A DNA stretch of 32,000 nucleotides, from the NCBI GenBank assembly GCA_004284765.1, contig NQJD01000003.1, positions 30,001-62,000 of the forward strand, written 5' to 3'. Source of the DNA: Candidatus Electronema aureum. Its GTDB lineage: Bacteria > Desulfobacterota > Desulfobulbia > Desulfobulbales > Desulfobulbaceae. Of this stretch, positions 470 through 11,800 are shown in pieces. The notes beneath the pieces were generated by a model. It made no database searches, was not told where the DNA came from, and saw only the letters and a list, made by a program, of their open reading frames with translations. The position numbers were made by a program, and so were the translations under genes. Within the stretch, counting starts at the first letter, position 1. Each line of letters begins with the position of its first letter.

Positions 470-1210
470 ATGAACCTACAGGAAGACCCGATAAAACCCG
501 GCGAAGGCCATCGTCAACGGTTACGTGACCGATTTCAGGCCCAAGGCATGGACGCTCTGACCGATACTGAGGTCATTGAACTGCTGCTGACATTCGGCAC
601 GCCTCGTTCCGATTGCCGTCCTTCAGCGGAGGAAGCCATGCAGCGGTTCAAAACACTGCCGGAAGTTTTAGACGCGCATCCAACAGCCTTGGAAAAGGTC
701 AAAGGCATGGGGCCAAAAAACATCTTTGCTCTTCAATTCATTCAAGGTGTGGCACGGCGTTATCTCCGCCAGCGAATTCAGAAAAAGAACTACGTCACCT
801 CATCTAAAGACGTGGCCGATTATCTCATTCATGCCCTGCGCAGTCTGCGCCGCGAGGTTTTCATGGCCGTCTATCTTGATGCCTCGCACGCAGTCATTGA
901 CAGCGAAATTCTCTCTGAAGGCACCATCAACGTCAATACCGTTTATCCCCGCGAATTGATTAAGGCAGCACTGTCCCGCAATGCTGCCGCCTTGGTCATC
1001 GCCCACAACCATCCGTCGGGTAGTCTCCAGCCTTCGGCGCAGGACGAACAGCTCACCCGCACACTCTTCCTGATGTGTTCTTTCATGAATATCAACTTGC
1101 TCGATCATCTGATTATCGGTGCGGGCGAGACCGTCTATAGCTTTGCCGATCAAGGTCAGATGGCTGCTGTCCGCAACGACTGCGCTGCCCTTCGCTCTCG
1201 GCTGGCCTGA
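470..1210 (+). CDS. radC: RadC-like JAB/MPN-domain protein (UPF0758 family)
   Basis: ORF track 440..1210. N-terminal segment PIKPGEGHRQRLRDRF..LTDTEVIELLLTFGTP and a helix-hairpin-helix GMGPKN. C-terminal JAMM motif AHNHPSGSLQPSAQD. ATG 470 fits homologue N-termini better than TTG 440. Confidence 0.85.
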   Translation: MNLQEDPIKPGEGHRQRLRDRFQAQGMDALTDTEVIELLLTFGTPRSDCRPSAEEAMQRFKTLPEVLDAHPTALEKVKGMGPKNIFALQFIQGVARRYLRQRIQKKNYVTSSKDVADYLIHALRSLRREVFMAVYLDASHAVIDSEILSEGTINVNTVYPRELIKAALSRNAAALVIAHNHPSGSLQPSAQDEQLTRTLFLMCSFMNINLLDHLIIGAGETVYSFADQGQMAAVRNDCAALRSRLA

Positions 1211-1309
1211 GTTTAATACAGCTAACATGGTGGATGATAAGACAGAGGCAAGAATTTAGATGAATTACGGTTCATCTATTACCCTTTAGCGAGCGGAATT
1301 TGGAACGAG

Positions 1310-1422
1310 GTTTGCGAAGAAGTGCGCCCCCGGTGAAGGGGGCGCGGTTGTCGGTTCTCGTGATGAGCAACCTTATATGGTCAAAACGTGTTTCAATCCA
1401 CGCACCCACAAAGGGGAGCGAC
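1310..1422 (-). CRISPR. orphan mini-array or array remnant: two degenerate type I-C-family repeats flanking one 41-nt spacer
   Basis: Minus strand 1422->1390 reads GTCGCTCCCCTTTGTGGGTGCGTGGATTGAAAC, against the recalled canonical I-C repeat GTCGCGCCCCGCACGGGCGCGTGGATTGAAAC. Minus strand 1348->1310 reads ACCGCGCCCCCTTCACCGGGGGCGCACTTCTTCGCAAAC, with a perfect 8-bp GC stem and a diverged tail. No cas genes occur in the window. Confidence 0.45.
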
Positions 1423-1662
1423 TTTTGCTAAATAAGGCTTCAGCAGACCTTCTTCAGGGGGGACAGAAGTTACCTAATGAAGTATCTAAGGACTTCGATC
1501 AGTGTTGTTGCCGTGATGCTGGCTAACACTGACATCCAAAACTCTTCCATCGTACACCTCTCTTGGTTCGTGGTTATAAGCAGTTGGACATAATTAACCG
1601 CTTGCCTTAGCCGTAAGAAGAGGGTATTCTGTTATAAACAGAACCACTCTTACTGTGGTGTT

Positions 1663-1713
1663 ACGCGCTGAATCGAATGCCGCCAAGCAATTTACGATTC
1701 AGCGCGTTTTTTT
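1663..1713 (+). terminator. rho-independent terminator with no annotated gene upstream
   Basis: A 13-bp stem ACGCGCTGAATCG (1663-1675) / CGATTCAGCGCGT (1695-1707), a 19-nt loop, and a T7 run at 1707-1713. The T-tract is present only on the plus strand. Confidence 0.7.
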
Positions 1714-1848
1714 ATTTATACAGATAGGTTGTATGGTTTTGAACCTCCTTTTTCGTTGTGAAATAGTTAGCTCCAAGCTGAAGATGGCTATTTATACATC
1801 TCGATTAAGAGCTTTGCAAGGTAAATCTTTATTCACCTGCTGGCAACA

Positions 1849-1888
1849 TATATGTCATAACGTAAACGGATTTACGTTATGACATATA
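1849..1888. repeat. perfect 18-bp inverted repeat with a 4-nt spacer
   Basis: TATATGTCATAACGTAAA (1849-1866), CGGA, TTTACGTTATGACATATA (1871-1888). The arms are exact reverse complements. Confidence 0.9.
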
Positions 1889-2066
1889 CATTCACATCAG
1901 CATGGATGTTGGGGTTCGCTGCGTTTACCCGCAACTTGCTAGCCTCTGTAGCGCAGATGATTGAACTGGCAAACAGCATCCCCCTAGTCGGTGCCCGACT
2001 CCAAGACCATGCCCAAGCCTGGATGCAAGATTTTCCCTTCCTGCACAGGGTTCCTGCATAAATTTT

Positions 2067-2095
2067 TTGTCTTTTTGCCAAGCTGCCGGTATATT
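2067..2095 (+). promoter_or_regulatory. candidate sigma-70 promoter for the RNB ribonuclease / K+ channel genes
   Basis: TTGTCT (2067-2072), a 17-nt spacer, then TATATT (2090-2095), about 110 nt upstream of ATG 2206. Confidence 0.3.
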
Positions 2096-2205
2096 CCACC
2101 TGTTCTTCCGCGTGAGGAACACTGATCGTTCGCCGCCCCGGCCAGCGTAGATGCGGGGCAAGCCTGCATCCGGGCCTGCTCCTCAACTTTTGAAGAAATC
2201 GCATC

Positions 2206-4212
2206 ATGACCTCTCCTGGAAGCATTGTTGAATATCTGGATGCTGGCCGCTTCATCTGCGGTCTTGTCCTTCAGGACAGCAGCGGCAAGCTGCGTCTGAT
2301 TAATCAGAATGGCCGGGAGATCGTGCTGCCCGCCTCGCGGGTGCTAACGGTTTCCAAAACCCGGCATCAGATCGAAGGCAGCCGCGAAGACCGCATGGCT
2401 TTGCTCAAAGGCATGGCCGAGAACCGCGCCGCCCTTACCGGCGCTATCCCGCTAGAGGAAATCTGGGAGTTGGCTAGTGCAGAAGAGCAATCCGCTTTCC
2501 CAGCTGACTTTCTGGCTGGACTCTTCTTCGGTGGCAGCTTGAACGATGACCAATCTGCGGCCTTCCTGCGGGCGGTGTTTGAAGACCGCCTGTTCTTCAA
2601 ATTCAAGAATGAGCTGGTCAGTGTTCATAGCCCGGAGCAGGTGGAGCAACTGCGTCTTCAGCGGCAACGCGAGCAGGAAAAGGAGGATTTGCTGAAGACT
2701 GGCGCGGCTCATCTGGCAGCTCTCTCGCAAGGCACGCAGATTTCAGCCGAACAATGGCCAGAGCGTGAGCGCGTTCTCTCTTGGCTGGCTGACTTTGCCC
2801 TCTTTGGCAGCGAGGCAGTGAACTGTGATCTCGAGTTAGTCCGCCAATTACTCAAGAACGCTGGGTTAAATCGACCCAGCGATCCTTACCGAGTACTGGT
2901 ACAGGCGGGTTACTGGCAGCCAGATGAGAACATCGCCTTGCTTCAGGCAGAACAGCCAGTGGAATTCAGTCCAGAGTTGCTGGCTCATGCGAACAGCATC
3001 ACCGAACCAACTGCCGAAGAGTTGCTGGCTAATCCCAAGCGCAAGGATTTCCGCGAGCTGGATATCTTCACCATTGATGGTGCCTCCACCCGCGACTACG
3101 ACGACGCGCTGCACGTTGAGCAGCAAGAGGACGGCAGTCTTTTGGTAGGCATCCATGTCTCTGATGTCAGCTACTTTATCAGCCCGAAAGACCCGCTGTT
3201 TGTCGAGAGCTTAGAGCGGGCAACCTCGCTCTATTTCCCCGAAGGCCAAGTGCCGATGATGCCGCGCGAGCTGTCGCAAGGCGTGTTCAGCCTGATTAAA
3301 GACCGAGTGCGGCCAGCAGTGAGCTGTCTGGTCAAAATGTCACCAAAGGGTGAAATCCTCAGCAGCAAGATTGTTCTTAGCATCATCCAGGTTAAGCGGC
3401 AGCTCAGTTACAGCGAAGCTGACCGGATGGTGGAGGAGGACAACAGCCTGCGCCTGCTCAACCGGCTTCAGCTTCAGCTCCGTCAGCAGCGGGCCGGACG
3501 CGGTGCTCTGCTGCTCTCCCTACCGGACGTGAATGTCTATGTTGAGAACGGCAAGGTTTCGGTTGTGCTCACGCCTTCGGATACCCCGGCCCGCAGCATC
3601 GTGGCCGAGTGCATGATTCTTGCCAATGGCATTGCTGCTGACTACCTTGCTGCCCAGGAAGCACCAGGGCTGTTCCGCTCTCAACCGCCACCCAAGAAGC
3701 GGCTGATCGAGGGCGTGCATAACAGCTTGGCTGACATCGCTTGTCAGCGACGCTTTCTTGCCCGTGGCGAGCTGACTGCTAACCCCAAACCGCATTCTGG
3801 CCTTGGCCTCAACTGCTACACCACCGTAACCTCGCCAATCAGGCGGGTCTTAGACACAGCGATACAGCTACAAATTACCAACATGATCAGCGGCAAAGGC
3901 ATCCTCTTCTCCATGGACGAATGCCGAAAATTTGTCGGGATCATTCAGGAGAAGCTCTCCCGTGCCAACAAGGTGCGCCAGCAACGGCACCGTTACTGGA
4001 TACTGCGTTGGCTGGAAGAGCAGGTCGGCAAAACTCTGCCTGCCTTGGTGGTCAACAGCGGCCCGCAGCGAGTCAGTGCCTTGCTCTTGGATTGTCTCTT
4101 TGATGTTGATCTACCTGTTCATCCCTCGTTGCAGGCCGAGCCAGGCGATGAAGTCAACGTCCGCATTGCCAAGGTGGATGCGTTGGAGAACACGCTGCGG
4201 GTGGAGTGGTAA
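2206..4212 (+). CDS. RNB-domain 3'-5' exoribonuclease (RNase II/R family)
   Basis: 668-aa ORF. RNB catalytic motifs [17 protein letters not shown] and [12 protein letters not shown]. The C-terminal S1-like tail ends [12 protein letters not shown]. Confidence 0.85.
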
Positions 4213-4221
4213 TGTCGGGCG

Positions 4222-5259
4222 ATGCGCGACAGTTCCTTGCTCGCTCGACTGCGCAAGCGGATTGATACAGCATTCCGCAAATATATCCTCCCAGCTTTCC
4301 CACTGCTGCTCCTCCTCGTGGCCGGGCCGCTTGGCTACGAGTTGCTGGAGGGCTTCAGCTTCCTTGAAGGGCTGTATCTGACTGCGATCACCATCACCAC
4401 GGTTGGTTACGGCGACCTTGCGCCGAAAACCATTGGTGGTCGCCTCTTCACTATCCTGCTGATTTTCTCCGGGGTAGGCTATGTCATGTACCTGTTCAGC
4501 CAGATCACCGAGGCAATGATCGAAGGCGGATTGCGGCATATCGTTGTCAAAAGACAAATGCAGAAAAAGATAACTAAACTGCAAGATCATTACATTGTCT
4601 GTGGTTTTGGCAGAATTGGCCAAGAAATTTGCTCTATCCTCAAGGAGAATAACCGCTCTTTTGTAGTGATTGAAAGCGACGAAGGTGTGATTGATTCGAT
4701 AGATCGACTCGGCTACCCAGAATTAAAAGGAGATGCCTCTGATGATGATATTTTGCTGGCCGCTGGGATTAAGCAAGCACGCGGTTTGGTGACTGTCGTC
4801 TCGTCAGATGAAAAAAATGTTTATATCACGCTCACTGCACGGGAGCTGAATCAGAAATTGTTTATCCTTGCCCGTTCCAGCGGGATGCACGGTGCAGCCA
4901 AAAAGCTGGAGCGAGCTGGAGCCAGCCGAGTGATTTCGCCTTACTGCATCGGCGCGCGCCGGATGGCCCAGCTTATTGTTCGACCTACAGTGGTTGATTT
5001 CCTTGATTTAGCCACGCAAGCAGGTGATTTAGGTCTGCGCATGGAAGAACTGATGGTGGGCAAGCAAGCCGCTTATGTCGGTAAAACCCTGATGGAAACC
5101 GGGGTTCGACAAAAATACGGCATCATTGTCGTAGCAATCAAACGGGAAGATATGCCTATGATCTTCAACCCTGGCTCAGAAACCAAAATTATGGCAGGCG
5201 ATATCCTGATTGTGCTGGGGGAAAGCAGCCATATCTCTGCCCTATCCGAGACCTTGTAG
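4222..5259 (+). CDS. two-TM potassium channel with cytoplasmic RCK/TrkA domains
   Basis: K+ selectivity filter TTVGYGD between two hydrophobic helices. Rossmann motif VCGFGRIGQEI (TrkA-N) and a C-terminal TrkA-C-like segment. It starts 9 nt after the RNB gene stop. Confidence 0.85.
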   Translation: MRDSSLLARLRKRIDTAFRKYILPAFPLLLLLVAGPLGYELLEGFSFLEGLYLTAITITTVGYGDLAPKTIGGRLFTILLIFSGVGYVMYLFSQITEAMIEGGLRHIVVKRQMQKKITKLQDHYIVCGFGRIGQEICSILKENNRSFVVIESDEGVIDSIDRLGYPELKGDASDDDILLAAGIKQARGLVTVVSSDEKNVYITLTARELNQKLFILARSSGMHGAAKKLERAGASRVISPYCIGARRMAQLIVRPTVVDFLDLATQAGDLGLRMEELMVGKQAAYVGKTLMETGVRQKYGIIVVAIKREDMPMIFNPGSETKIMAGDILIVLGESSHISALSETL

Positions 5260-5430: not shown

Positions 5431-6045
5431 ATGACAGCTTCCATGAATAGGGGTAATTGTGCCGCACATCTTTTTTTAGAACGCGCTGTTTTGACGGCTG
5501 GGCCACGCCGCCTGTTCCCGCTGCTTGTTGCAGCTGCGCTCTTAATGCCTGTTTTGGCTGTAGCAGAGAACCTTTTTGTCTCGGCCAACATAGATGTGCC
5601 GGTGCGAAGAGGGGCTGGGGAACAGTACAAGATCATCAAGATGGTTAAAGTCAGTGATCGAGCCGAACTCATAGAGGAAAAAAATGGCTGGGCCAAAGTG
5701 CGGTTTCAGGACGGCGTGGACGGTTGGTTGCCCAAGTTGCTCTTGACTCCTATTGCTCCGCCGGTTGAGGATATTAAAAAACTGCGAACAGAAAATGAGC
5801 AAATCCAGCGAAAAAATAGTGAGTTGAGTATGGAACTGAGTGCTCTCAAAGAACATCAAGACGGCGAAGGTGACAAATTAGCTGCCTGTATTAGCGATCA
5901 AAACGCGATCAAGGCCGAGCGGAGAGCGGCGGAGGATGCGGGTAAAGCCCTTTGGTTCCTGTCTGGTGGCGGCGTGCTGTTGCTCGGCTGGCTGCTCGGT
6001 CGCCTTTCTCACAGTCCGCAGCGCAAAAAAAGCAGTCTCCGCTGA
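5431..6045 (+). CDS. SH3-domain membrane protein (YgiM/TIGR04211-like)
   Basis: N-terminal signal/TM segment. SH3_3-like core ([35 protein letters not shown]), a coiled coil, and a C-terminal TM ([18 protein letters not shown]). Confidence 0.7.
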
Positions 6046-6650: not shown

Positions 6651-8069
6651 ATGACGAACAAAATATTTATGAACCCATTGAATTCTCTCACCCCTAAGCA
6701 GATTGTGCAGGAGTTAGACCGCTATATCATAGGTCAAAATGAGGCCAAACGCTCCGTGGCCATCGCTCTCCGCAGTCGCTGGCGGCGGCAGCAGGTGCCG
6801 CCTCCTTTGCGCGAAGAAATTGCGCCGAAAAATATCATCATGATCGGCCCTACTGGGGTGGGAAAGACAGAAATCGCCCGGCGGCTGGCTCATCTTGCTC
6901 AGTCGCCCTTTCTCAAAGTCGAAGCCTCTAAGTTCACCGAGGTTGGTTATGTAGGTCGCGATGTGGAGTCAATGATTCGTGATTTAGTACAGTTAGCGGT
7001 CAACATGGTGACGAAGGAGGAGGAGGAAGGCGTGGCGGCCAAAGCTGCCGTTGCTGCGGAAGAGCGGCTTCTTGACCTACTTCTGCCGCCGCTGCCCGCG
7101 AAAAAGCCAATCAATGAGGACGAGGTAATTGTCTTGCCGTATGACGAGGGCGGTGAAGAGAGTAATCTGCGCGGCAGTATGGAGAAAACTCGCGAAAAAT
7201 TGCGCCGGATGCTCCACAGCGGTGAGTTAGATGATCGCTTAGTTGAGTTGAAGGTAGCCACCGGCAAGCCGCAAGGTCCGATTGTTGAGGTTTTTTCTAC
7301 CTCCGGCATGGAAGACATGCAGTCCTCGCTGCAAGAGGCGTTTTCTAAAATTTTCCCCGGCCAGAAGCAAGAGCGCAAAGTCAGGGTGCCGGAAGCTCTC
7401 GAATATTTGAAGAAAGAAGAGGCGCACAAACTGGTCGATACTGAAAGCGTAGCAGAAAAGGCCGTGCGCCGTACCGAGCAGACTGGCATTATTTTTCTCG
7501 ATGAAATCGATAAGATCGCTTCACGCGGCGGTGGTGGCCACGGCCCAGATGTCTCGCGGGAAGGCGTACAGCGCGACCTTCTGCCCATTGTTGAAGGCTC
7601 GACCGTAACCACCAAATACGGCCCAGTGCGTACCGATCATATTCTCTTTATCGCTTCCGGCGCCTTTTATACTAACAAACCCTCGGATTTGGCCCCAGAG
7701 CTGCAAGGCCGCTTCCCTATTCGGGTGAATCTGAACGCCCTTGGTGAAGAAGAATTTTTCCGCATCCTTACCGAGCCAAACAACGCCCTGATCAAGCAAT
7801 ACATCGCGTTGCTGAACACCGAGGGGATCGAGCTGAAATTTGACGAAGCGGCGATTCAAGAGATGGCGCGGATTGCGGCAGAGGTTAATCGCAAGACCGA
7901 GGATATCGGCGCGCGGCGGCTGCATACCGTGATCGAATGCGTTTTAGACAAACTTTCCTACGATGCCTCAGAGCTGGACGAGCAGTTGTTCACCGTGACA
8001 GCGGAATATGTCCGGCAACAGCTTTCTGTTATTTCAGAAAATGAGGATTTGAGCAGGTATATTCTGTAA
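6651..8069 (+). CDS. hslU: ATP-dependent protease ATPase subunit HslU
   Basis: [34 protein letters not shown], Walker [16 protein letters not shown], Walker [11 protein letters not shown], and an I-domain insertion. An alternative start is ATG 6669. Confidence 0.93.
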
Positions 8070-9516: not shown

Positions 9517-10269
9517 ATGTTGAATCTGAAGGGGAAAGCAGCATTAGTTACCGGAGGATCGCGCGGCATTGGACGGGCTATTGCCCTGCGGCTGGCGGAG
9601 CATGGCGCTGACATTGTGGTGAATTATGTTCGCCACCGCAGCGATGCTGAGGGGACTGCGGCAGCGGTCGAGCGGCACGGGGTGCGCTGCTTGGTAATCA
9701 AAGCCAATGTAGCAGAAGAAAAAGACGTGCTGGCGATGTTCGAGCAAATTCGCGCCGAGTATCAACGGATAGATATTCTGGTCTCGAATGCGGCTTCCGG
9801 GGTACTAAAACCGGTGATGGAGCTGACCCAGCGGCACTGGGACTGGGCAATGGACATTAATGCGCGAGCCATGCTCACATTGACTCAGCAAGCAGTGCCG
9901 CTGATGGCACCCGGCGGACGAGTACTGGCTATTTCCAGTCTCGGTGCGGTGCGAGCAGTGCCTAATTACACGGTGGTCGGAGCCTCAAAAGCAGCCTTGG
10001 AATCGTTAGTGCGCCATCTGGCAGTGGAACTTGGCCCAAAAGGCATCACAGTCAACACTATCAGCGCAGGCGTTGTTGATACCGATGCCCTCAAAAAATT
10101 TCCCAACCGCGATGAGATCATCCGACAATCTTTAGAGCGCACACCCTTGGGTCGCCTGACCACCCCCGAAGATGTGGCTGATTTGGCACTTTTTCTATGC
10201 AGCGAAGGAGCGGCTATGATTCACGGCCAAGTGCTGGTGGTGGATGGAGGCTATGCGGTACAAGGCTGA
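9517..10269 (+). CDS. fabL: enoyl-[acyl-carrier-protein] reductase, FabL-type SDR
   Basis: TGGSRGIGRAIALRLAE, VVNY, NAASGVLKPVMELTQRHWDWAMDINARA and YTVVGASKAALE closely track B. subtilis FabL as I recall it. SD AGGAGA lies upstream of the ATG. Confidence 0.8.
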   Translation: MLNLKGKAALVTGGSRGIGRAIALRLAEHGADIVVNYVRHRSDAEGTAAAVERHGVRCLVIKANVAEEKDVLAMFEQIRAEYQRIDILVSNAASGVLKPVMELTQRHWDWAMDINARAMLTLTQQAVPLMAPGGRVLAISSLGAVRAVPNYTVVGASKAALESLVRHLAVELGPKGITVNTISAGVVDTDALKKFPNRDEIIRQSLERTPLGRLTTPEDVADLALFLCSEGAAMIHGQVLVVDGGYAVQG

Positions 10270-10295
10270 AATGCTGTGAAGTCTAAATTAAATTA

Positions 10296-10372: not shown

Positions 10373-11800
10373 TCAATACGCGCCTTTGCCACTAACCATG
10401 CAGCCGATGGTTTTGATAATGATTTTTAGATCACAAAGTAACGAATGGTTGAGGACATACCAGTCGTCTAACTCCACCCGCTCCTGATAGTTCTCGGTAT
10501 CGCTACGTTTCGTCACCTGCCACGGCCCAGTAATGCCTGGCTTCATCGACACATAGCGGCCTGCGCTCAACTCGCCGCTGCCTTTGTAGTATTCCTCCAG
10601 CTCTCTGCCGACAATAGGCCGTGCGCCAACCACGCTCATTTCACCCTTGAGAACGTTGATAAACTGGGGAAATTCATCTAAGCTGGTGCGGCGGAGAAAG
10701 CGACCCATGCGGGTGATGCGGGGGTCATGCTTCAGCTTGAAATTGTGCTGCCATTCCTCAGCTAAGGCAGAATCGCCAGCCAGCAGCTCATGCAGCTTCT
10801 TGTCCGCATCGATGACCATGGTGCGAAATTTCAAACATTCAAATTCCCGCCCAGTAGCCATAATCCGTCGGTGTTTATAGAAAATTGGGCCTTGGCTATC
10901 GAGCTTGATCAACAGCATGATCAGCAGCATCAGCGGCGCGGTCAGCAGGAGAATGCAAACGGAGAAAACAATGTCAAAAGTTCGTTTCCAGCCGGAATCT
11001 GGGTTGAAACTAAGAACCAAGGTTTCGCCGATGGACTGAATTTCCGCATGATGCAGGCCGAAAATATACAAATCTGGTACGAGATAAAGCTGCGCTCCTA
11101 AGTCACGACATTCCCGTAGTATCCAGAATATTTTGCGTTCGGCCCGCATAGGTAAGGCGATATAAACATAGTCGATATTGTTGGCCATCAGATATTCGCG
11201 TAACTCGCGAATTCTGCCGAGCAAAGGCTTGTTGACCGCAGCGGGGCCATTTTGTTCCAGCCGATCATCGAAAAAGCCAACAACCTCAATGCCTGCCCAA
11301 GGAATAGATTCAGTCTGTTGAGCCATGCGCACGCCCAACTCGCCTGCGCCGACAATGACTGCATGGCGGATATTTTTGCCTTGCGCACGGTAATACCTCA
11401 GGGTTTTGCGTACTGACAAATGCGCGAGAAAAATTAGAAAAGGTGTGGTGAACGACCAGAGTATGAACACCATTCTGGAATAACCTTCAGAGACTTTGAA
11501 GGCAAAGAAATAGAAAAGCATGAAGCCAATTACCGCCGCCCATGCTCTGAGTATAACGAAGAATTCAAGATAGAGCTTCCAACCCCGCCACGAGCGGTAC
11601 AGCTGGAAATACTGAAAGCTGACAAAGCAAACCGCAAAAACAATCAGTTCCAGCCACGTGTAGTAACGACTCCACGGTACCTTATAAAATAGGACTAAGA
11701 GGCCGAGATAGCCGCAGACCAGCGAGCAATCGAGAATGTGCAGAAACTTATAGATGGCGGAAGTGCGCTGGCGCAGATTCCAAGACAGGGCAGGTGACAT
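10373..11800 (-). CDS. polyprenyl-phosphate hexose-1-phosphate transferase (WcaJ/exopolysaccharide priming glycosyltransferase family)
   Basis: N-terminal multi-TM region, central VIVGAGELG Rossmann-like domain, and a C-terminal bacterial sugar transferase domain (FKLKHDPRITRMGRFLRRTSLDEFPQFINVLKGEMSVVGARP..KPGITGPWQV). Confidence 0.85.
   Translation of the reverse strand: MSPALSWNLRQRTSAIYKFLHILDCSLVCGYLGLLVLFYKVPWSRYYTWLELIVFAVCFVSFQYFQLYRSWRGWKLYLEFFVILRAWAAVIGFMLFYFFAFKVSEGYSRMVFILWSFTTPFLIFLAHLSVRKTLRYYRAQGKNIRHAVIVGAGELGVRMAQQTESIPWAGIEVVGFFDDRLEQNGPAAVNKPLLGRIRELREYLMANNIDYVYIALPMRAERKIFWILRECRDLGAQLYLVPDLYIFGLHHAEIQSIGETLVLSFNPDSGWKRTFDIVFSVCILLLTAPLMLLIMLLIKLDSQGPIFYKHRRIMATGREFECLKFRTMVIDADKKLHELLAGDSALAEEWQHNFKLKHDPRITRMGRFLRRTSLDEFPQFINVLKGEMSVVGARPIVGRELEEYYKGSGELSAGRYVSMKPGITGPWQVTKRSDTENYQERVELDDWYVLNHSLLCDLKIIIKTIGCMVSGKGAY

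Follow-up and report, generated by a model that had tools for sequence, protein, structure and literature searches.

In this report we describe a small unit resembling clustered regularly interspaced short palindromic repeats (CRISPR) on the minus strand of a 32,000-nucleotide (nt) stretch of DNA from the freshwater cable bacterium Candidatus Electronema aureum, referred to below as the window, which derives from the closed chromosome OW818638.1 (2,938,053 bp). The unit, which lies in the segment between radC and a gene for an RNB-domain RNase (the junction segment), is made up of two divergent repeats, psiR1 and psiR2, separated by a single spacer-like sequence, psiS. We regard it as a mini-array of the CreA/CreR class and of type I-C ancestry, the copy in the window being most likely a non-functional, orphaned relic, and we would put the probability of this reading at about 0.62. 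The architecture is taken to be of the CreTA/CreR type because on the minus strand a target site, a promoter, small open reading frames (ORFs), psiR1, psiS and psiR2 follow one another in this order, because the repeats are divergent and no leader is demonstrable, and because spacer and target co-vary between E. aureum and a relative represented by a metagenome contig (L136). That the window copy is most likely a relic is suggested by the apparent absence of an orthologous Cas3 from E. aureum, a protospacer-adjacent motif (PAM) that reads TTT, two defects in the stem of psiR1 and the absence of the ATG mini-ORFs which the relative possesses. The parts of the unit and the DNA that adjoins it downstream are as follows.

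1390..1422, minus strand: psiR1 (unit 1), a degenerate type I-C repeat, GTCGCTCCCCTTTGTGGGTGCGTGGATTGAAAC, with 41 bits against the family model.
1390-1401, minus strand: the 3' 12 nt of psiR1, GTGGATTGAAAC, the portion that would supply the 5' handle of a CRISPR RNA (crRNA).
1349..1389, minus strand: psiS, a 41-nt spacer-like sequence, ACGTTTTGACCATATAAGGTTGCTCATCACGAGAACCGACA.
1310..1348, minus strand: psiR2 (unit 2), a perfect 8-bp GC hairpin at about 1324-1345, then a diverged tail ending in GCAAAC.
1292..1309, minus strand: the conserved trailer after psiR2; 1292-1317 matches L136 4972-4997 at 92%, and the homology stops at 1292.
1211..1291, no strand assigned: the breakpoint zone from the module to the radC stop, which holds an AT-rich hairpin (1258-1277) and is without homology to L136 or any relative.

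Unit 1 is a true type I-C family repeat, present from 1422 to 1390 on the minus strand exactly as the original prediction had described it. It is identical to the I-C consensus given in that prediction at 26 of 32 aligned positions, and its alignment score of 18 compares with a maximum of 5 among 3000 random 33-mers from the window. Rfam was not useful as a classifier of this repeat, since nothing in the window reached a gathering score and the best candidate, CRISPR-DR9, attained 14.8 bits against a cutoff of 45; because of this lack of recognition we built our own covariance model from 52 real variants of the repeat and used it as the classifier. The model places the 33-mer in the family with an E value of 2.5e-9, and this is the sole strong match in the window. 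The pattern GTCGCWCCCCNNNNNGGGWGCGTGGATTGAAAC, scanned over one genome per bacterial species, returned at least 120 stretches, some of those listed being arrays in which it is matched exactly as many as 116 times. At two loci with enough flanking sequence, arrays of the family stand directly after cas3-cas5d-csd1-cas7-cas4-cas1-cas2, with a leader of about 170 nt, and the repeat is therefore of type I-C.

The stem of this repeat is weakened, again as predicted. Positions 6 and 19 of psiR1 face each other as T.T, a state found in 1 of 1578 real repeats, 1576 of which have T/A or A/T there; positions 10 and 15 are C/T, as in 3 of the same 1578, the C10-G15 pair being present in 1486. Complementarity at 6/19 and 10/15, which marks an intact stem in the I-C repeat family, is thus lacking at both sites, and psiR1 folds with -8.6 kcal/mol, where real repeats of the family reach -12.0 to -17.7. 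Within its sequence context the fold is moreover beaten by an alternative one. The exact variant of unit 1 has no other copy in 241 million metagenome records, an absence that fits a stranded relic.

Two observations concern the relatives of this repeat in databases. One of the two variants closest to unit 1 among the matches listed, with 3 mismatches, is a truly solitary I-C repeat in a metagenome-assembled genome of the Eubacteriales (L020, 3212-3244, minus strand). The sole match of the junction segment in the plasmid database is likewise the repeat, 1385-1423 being 90% identical to one site, 504627-504664, of the megaplasmid of Tistrella mobilis (NC_017958.1).

Unit 2, read from 1348 to 1310 on the minus strand, is ACCGCGCCCCCTTCACCGGGGGCGCACTTCTTCGCAAAC. 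Its perfect 8-bp GC stem-loop and diverged tail had both been described correctly, and the hairpin folds with -19.9 kcal/mol (z -5.1). By sequence it is weakly repeat-like (7.3 bits, E about 6, with the covariance model), and we include it in the unit because its hairpin is conserved together with the handle in L136. The predicted 41-nt spacer after unit 1 is also there, with a length that is abnormal for the family: among 1402 family spacers, 98.3% measure 32-37 nt, and lengths of 41 nt or more account for 0.14%. When compared with phage and plasmid databases, as had been proposed, psiS gave no meaningful match in either, and viral contigs contain no exact 20-21-mers of it.

The original prediction had gone further and counted the hairpin at 1258-1277 as a third unit. 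The hairpin is a real fold (z -3.7), but it has neither a covariance-model match nor any similarity to the repeat and stands in genome-specific DNA outside the conserved block, and we have rejected it as a repeat unit; nor does the covariance model find further decayed units in the window. The side upstream of psiR1, proposed as an AT-rich leader, is mildly AT-rich (44% GC, compared with 53% in the window), but its resemblance to leaders comes down to a 10/11 match to one real I-C leader end (p 0.11), and the leader hypothesis is unsupported. At least three regular repeats, spacers of the usual length, a leader and cas genes, by which an immune array is recognised, are not present at this locus.

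The strongest argument for the class of the unit comes from L136, a Joint Genome Institute metagenome contig found among the members of the cluster at 90% identity or more to which the RNB protein belongs, the DNA of which is 93% identical to the window from 1976 onward. On the minus strand of this contig, the region upstream of RNB contains successively a mini-array, a gene with an fn3 domain, cas3 (HD and helicase), a gene pair encoding an 86-aa protein and a PIN-domain protein, and cas5d, which extends past the end of the fetched locus. The mini-array stands 1.3 kb upstream of this I-C cas3, on the same strand. Positions 1292-1344 of the window, that is, the unit 2 hairpin with its trailer, are 92-97% identical to L136 4972-5041, and one spacer length upstream of psiR2 L136 reads ...GGGTGTGGATTGAAAC. 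In a pairwise alignment the handle is identical at 12 of 12 nt, and the psiR2 hairpin, CGCCCCCTTCACCGGGGGCGCAC, is identical as well. The 5' half of the L136 psiR1 has diverged, with no stem left, the repeat still being detected by the covariance model at 19.7 bits (E 6e-4); the L136 spacer is 39 nt long and unrelated to psiS, and the array has only two units. Since handle and psiR2 hairpin have stayed identical while the spacers and the 5' part of psiR1 have diverged, the mini-array is conserved as a unit, and selection has preserved its handle and second hairpin. Conservation of both units in relatives, one of the checks suggested beforehand, is thus seen in L136, which keeps these two parts with a different spacer. 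By the same comparison, the native place of the unit is the cas3 end of the I-C operon and not, as for I-C arrays, a position after cas2.

Upstream of psiR1 the junction segment contains the remaining parts of the module, up to the block that is conserved in front of the RNB gene.

1470..1550, minus strand: a 26-codon ORF, MEEFWMSVLASITATTLIEVLRYFIR, preceded by a GAGG Shine-Dalgarno sequence; a candidate small hydrophobic peptide, possibly a toxin.
1663..1714, plus strand: a 13-bp hairpin followed by T7, resembling an intrinsic terminator; on the minus strand, an A-run and hairpin after the Shine-Dalgarno block.
1743..1758, minus strand: a conserved Shine-Dalgarno block, CAACGAAAAAGGAGGT, collinear with L136, where ATG mini-ORFs follow it; none follow here.
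1791..1819, minus strand: promoter-like TTGCAA-17-TATAAA, 9/12 in a relaxed scan and sharing the top score for this strand within the segment.
1826..1866, minus strand: the putative target of psiS, with a PAM-like TTT at 1864-1866 and then a protospacer-like sequence at 1826-1863.
1837..1900, no strand assigned: a large palindrome with perfect 18-bp arms (1849-1866 and 1871-1888) and a 4-nt loop; the arms carry TTT and the seed, and the DNA fold has a z of -6.5.
1976..2205, plus strand: the start of the conserved block upstream of the RNB gene, which forms the other boundary of the module; 93% identical to L136 from 1976 and 90% identical to Ca. Electronema sp. PJ from 2026.

In CreA, nt 1-5 and 7-11 of the spacer pair with a promoter beside a TTC PAM (PMC8501985). 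A search for a partial seed match next to a PAM at a promoter, which the original prediction had proposed, led in the window to the site 1826-1863, where nt 1-5 and 7-10 of psiS match in register, although after TTT and not TTC; the L136 counterpart does have TTC. The string TTT-ACGTT-A-TGACA is present in both arms of the 18-bp palindrome (1849-1888). Aligned with gaps, psiS and the minus arm agree at 27/35 positions with a score of 27, the best match in the window, for which p is 0.004 against shuffles of the segment, 0.03 when real 41-mers are compared with their own flanks, and 0.09 window-wide; the match beyond the seed taken separately has a p of 0.02. The L136 spacer, GTAGTTAGGTTTATTTGTAGTTGTAGCTATAAGCAGCAA, aligns from nt 1 to GTAGAAGGTTTATTTGTGAGTTGTAGTTTAAGCAG, a sequence of the same strand that is preceded immediately by GCATTC and lies about 540 nt farther upstream. 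This match scores 46, where the null gives 20.8 +/- 2.3 and none of 500 shuffles attains the same value, and the gapped alignment agrees at 32/36; the in-register seed consists of nt 1-4, followed by a 1-nt indel, and L136 has no other site that combines an in-register seed with a PAM. The co-variation of spacer and target rests on these two alleles, whose own pairs score 27 and 46 and whose cross pairs score 10-13, which is background. Both target sites are situated at the same distance (about 110-150 nt) from the conserved RNB-upstream block and about 0.5 kb upstream of their own mini-array.

The equivalent site in L136 is without a palindrome of this kind, and the palindrome core has no match in metagenome or viral collections. 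An origin of its arms from a phage or mobile element was considered and rejected, there being no viral matches to them and no plasmid or phage homology of the junction segment beyond the repeat.

The geometry of the predicted promoters is shared between the two loci. In L136 the best match of the promoter scan is TTGACT-17-TATCAT, which starts 8-9 nt after the protospacer, and the window has TTGCAA-17-TATAAA at the equivalent position, so that in both the promoter-like hexamers begin 6-9 nt after the protospacer; the strict promoter tool that finds the L136 pair rejects 1791..1819 since its last base is not T. Farther along, window and L136 have in common the Shine-Dalgarno block CAAC(G/A)AAAA(A/G)GGAGGT, after which, at a distance of 8 nt, L136 reads ATG TAT GTA TGA with an overlapping ORF that contains many AGA and ATA triplets, both of them rare codons in this genome; in the window no ATG follows the block. 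At the position equivalent to the 26-aa ORF of the window L136 has a 41-aa hydrophobic ORF. Homology between the two small peptides was tried and rejected, their similarity being not significant (p 0.18). The terminator-like hairpin at 1663-1714 lies 450 nt after the radC stop and would end radC read-through that runs antisense to the mini-array; a comparable hairpin with an A/T run can be read from the L136 sequence at about 5440-5500. Scans of the segment gave no convincing plus-strand promoter for an antisense RNA.

As regards the genomic setting, the sizeable ORFs of the window are all housekeeping genes (radC, the RNB-domain RNase, a TrkA-type channel, hslVU, priA, a gyrB/parE-like gene, pntB and others). 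In agreement with what had been predicted, there are no cas genes near the mini-array: Pfam finds no Cas domains in the 32-kb window, tblastn no cas pseudogene fragments in it, and a further 7.8 kb upstream of the window contains no cas genes either, none occurring within about 38 kb. Two independent Logan assemblies contain the junction segment in identical form, so that it is not an assembly artefact. From the radC stop (1210) to about 2025 (about 765 bp if counted to 1976) it has no counterpart in ten loci from relatives other than L136, and from radC to RNB its GC content is 45%, as against 53-57% in the flanks. In four relatives, including Ca. Electronema sp. PJ, radC stands directly before a hemN-like gene, and in another before an adenylosuccinate-lyase-like gene; among the loci compared, only E. 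aureum has the radC-hemN adjacency disrupted. Given this disruption, and a set of genes upstream of RNB that is different in each Electronema genome examined, the module is situated at a hot spot of rearrangement. Similarity to L136 stops at 1292, and 81 unrelated bases then extend to the radC stop, from which we conclude that the fn3-cas3 part is missing from the E. aureum site.

A search with the L136 Cas3 protein, in a collection that includes E. aureum proteins, found homologues in Ca. Electronema sp. PJ (in the same 90% cluster) and in Electrothrix species (59-69%). The E. aureum chromosome contributes none of the 120 best homologues, which extend down to 57% identity, and none of the members of the six closest clusters. 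E. aureum thus appears to be without an orthologous Cas3, and I-C effectors may then be absent genome-wide. Two observations on sp. PJ may be added: its I-C cas3 is on a different contig, of 17.8 kb, from RNB, and a fragment of an IS200-type (Y1) transposase ends the RNB contig 350 nt before RNB (L001, 1-350), at most 50 nt from the boundary where the module starts in E. aureum and L136.

The unit can be compared with several known systems. Described features of CreA are a seed of nt 1-5 and 7-11, a TTC PAM at the promoter, divergent repeat degeneration and the lack of a leader (PMC8501985). Like CreA of CreTA (Li et al. 2021; Cheng et al. 2021, PMC8501985), our unit has two divergent repeats with one spacer, of which the first keeps the handle and the second the hairpin; its spacer is in part complementary to a PAM-flanked site at a promoter-like sequence upstream on the same strand, corresponding to the order PcreTA-creT-creA; it has no evident leader; and in L136 it stands beside type I cas genes, with spacer and target co-varying between alleles. 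A position within or next to the matching cas operon, also typical of CreA/CreR, is thus found in L136 and not in the window. Unlike CreA, which has been characterised in types I-B and I-F, the module is of type I-C, the toxin is represented by candidate peptides and mini-ORFs only, and in L136 the module is separated from cas3 by 1.3 kb, which include a gene and a terminator-like hairpin, and is not located inside the operon; the window copy furthermore lacks a cas operon and has the PAM TTT, and the in-register seed in L136 is of 4 nt.

The CreR class is widespread in type I systems, typically upstream of cas genes (10.1101/2023.03.10.532045; PMC10120712), and mini-arrays in cas loci target the promoters of cas or cargo genes (PMC10120712). 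With such regulatory mini-arrays (Liu et al. 10.1101/2023.03.10.532045; Shmakov et al. 2023, PMC10120712) the module shares its degeneracy, its place beside a cas operon and a spacer partly complementary to a nearby promoter. It differs from CreR in that the target is not identified as a cas promoter; the terminator-like hairpin between fn3 and cas3 in L136 argues against the module promoter being that of cas3 and makes cas autoregulation unlikely, and the window copy has no cas genes to regulate. It resembles orphan or solitary CRISPR repeats in standing alone, distant from any cas gene, in a genome from which the matching system may be absent, but it is traceable to a regulatory mini-array that accompanied cas genes and not to an immune array or a spurious repeat duplication. 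The viral Cracr RNAs (10.1101/2024.10.29.618823), which include I-C-directed examples, are also Cas-less mini-arrays with degenerate repeats; they are carried by phages and plasmids and mimic host CreA/CreR, whereas the present unit is chromosomal and in L136 stands at the host's own cas locus. We found no literature account of the CRISPR subtype of cable bacteria.

From these comparisons we take the module to be part of the I-C system of this lineage of cable bacteria. It would comprise the mini-array, a promoter about 0.5 kb upstream of it, a PAM-flanked site just before the -35 box and small ORFs as candidate toxins, and would be placed at the cas3 end of the type I-C cas operon. In relatives that have kept the operon, the transcript of the mini-array would mature into a crRNA-like guide; I-C Cascade loaded with this guide could bind the partly complementary target without cleaving it, and in doing so repress the module's own promoter, so as to constitute an autoregulated, CRISPR-dependent circuit. 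In E. aureum a rearrangement has placed radC about 20-100 nt beyond psiR2 and removed the cas operon from the site. Transcription, processing, Cascade binding, repression and toxin function are steps that we infer for the module from its architecture.

Several points weigh against this picture and should be considered together. L136 is the single relative with the module that was retrieved, so that the co-variation amounts to two alleles. In it the fn3 gene and a terminator-like hairpin separate the mini-array from cas3, the module being at the edge of the locus, and its poor seed makes Cascade binding there doubtful; the homology of spacer and target could reflect shared ancestry and not present function. 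Taken alone, the match of psiS to its target in the window is modest, with p values of 0.03-0.09 according to the null used, and TTT stands there in place of the canonical TTC PAM. The module promoters are predictions, being consensus matches only, and the small hydrophobic ORFs, at p 0.18, show no demonstrable homology. Finally, the absence of a I-C system from E. aureum is judged from one protein family, which would not reveal a system that is divergent or pseudogenised.

The alternative that survives best is that of a working crRNA-like regulator in E. aureum itself, used in trans by a I-C or otherwise compatible effector elsewhere and repressing the promoter by the palindrome or some other target. 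Such an effector elsewhere on the chromosome is possible, the handle is intact, the psiR2 hairpin perfect and the promoter-like hexamers retained, and the in-register seed is actually better in the window than in L136. We nevertheless hold a working regulator to be unlikely, given that the Cas3 homologues surveyed include none from E. aureum, that the PAM is TTT, that the stem defects of psiR1 are nearly absent from functional repeats, with another fold prevailing in context, and that no second copy of the repeat variant turned up in the metagenome records. Likewise unlikely is the proposal that the mini-array has outlived its cas operon and remains active, either as a trans guide for a I-C-compatible effector or as a Cas-independent RNA controlling the hydrophobic ORF; if true, it would represent a crRNA-like regulator exapted for a role without an adjacent CRISPR-Cas locus. 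The suggestion of a Cas-less regulator of the CreA/CreR type, made in the original prediction, has accordingly to be divided: the class stands, on account of the L136 unit beside I-C cas genes, the spacer-target matches and their co-variation, and the Cas-less working state lacks support, the evidence pointing to loss of the adjoining cas operon and no orthologous Cas3 of E. aureum being among the homologues surveyed.

The more sober option offered at the same time, that of an eroded trailer, in which the last repeat, spacer and terminal repeat of a normal immune array survived deletion of the rest, also proves to be right in one part, since we too regard the unit as a remnant of a lost CRISPR-Cas locus. 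The segment is at a rearrangement junction, and the terminal repeats of real I-C arrays do keep their 5' end and stem while degenerating at the 3' side, much like unit 2. What makes an array trailer improbable is the comparison with L136, where the unit is upstream of cas3 and not downstream of cas2, has only two units and a 39-nt spacer, and includes a psiR1 that lost its stem but kept the handle exactly. The spacers, at 39-41 nt, depart from the 32-37 nt of 98% of real ones; they differ from each other, each matching its own neighbouring DNA from nt 1 beside TTC or TTT; and additional decayed units are missing.

We think it very improbable that the unit is an anti-CRISPR mini-array of the Cracr type left behind by a degraded prophage or other mobile element. 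Cas-less mini-arrays of phages and plasmids have been described, some of them aimed at I-C loci (10.1101/2024.10.29.618823), and the GC content of the segment is below that of its flanks; yet the window has no phage or mobile-element genes, the segment has no phage or plasmid match except the repeat, and in L136 the unit occupies the same chromosomal position beside the host's own cas operon. Also on the side of a viral source are two IMG/VR viral contigs with solitary I-C repeats, one of which has a mini-array. Both carry I-C-type repeats of the form GTCGCCCCCC(CC)GCGCGGGGGCGTGGATTGAAAC: L012 has a perfect two-repeat, one-spacer mini-array (3608-3704, plus strand), a solitary repeat (10910-10943, plus strand) and a weak copy (10250-10281, plus strand), and L011 a solitary repeat (2627-2660, minus strand) and a weak copy (7999-8030, plus strand). 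Such mini-arrays or solitary repeat units carried by viruses correspond to the kind that has recently been called Cracr. An equally poor prospect is a type I toxin-antitoxin system, in which the peptide gene at 1470-1550 (minus strand) would be controlled by a plus-strand antisense RNA ending at 1663-1714 and the repeats would be incidental, for in spite of a hydrophobic 26-aa ORF with a Shine-Dalgarno sequence and a strong plus-strand site resembling an intrinsic terminator antisense-downstream of it, a convincing plus-strand promoter is missing, the peptide bears no significant similarity to the L136 ORF, and the conserved handle and hairpin together with the spacer-target matches would be left unexplained.

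If the module is, as we prefer to think, an orphaned member of the CreA/CreR class, it would extend the range of such mini-arrays to type I-C systems, namely those of cable bacteria, organisms grown only in enrichment cultures, and would provide a natural case of a module that survived the loss of its own cas operon. Modules of the CreTA type have been proposed to addict cells to Cas effectors. In this context the finding that E. aureum has kept guide, target and promoter-like sequence but lost the cas genes, and lacks the ATG mini-ORFs of L136, suggests a route of escape from addiction, which the existence of two closely related alleles makes testable by comparison. For the scanning of genomes it would follow that a single repeat without cas genes in its vicinity may represent a fossil regulatory mini-array and not the tail of an immune array.

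Some further observations concern neighbouring or related loci. In L136 the 86-aa protein and the PIN-domain protein encoded between cas3 and cas5d (551-1218, minus strand) resemble a vapBC-like toxin-antitoxin pair, and between the mini-array and fn3 (4469-4692) there are tandemly repeated units of 21 and 63 nt, which consist of small TTGAAACG...CGTTTCAA hairpins and which E. aureum does not have. Elsewhere, a single I-C repeat stands directly beside repeats of another family, GATCCGCTGAGGATACTGAAAC (L131, 2600-2632, minus strand). On the E. aureum chromosome itself, radC has DNA that is non-syntenic with the relatives on both flanks, and 4.5 kb upstream of it lies a gene with an AbiTii domain, indicative of abortive infection (L133, 3716-4723).

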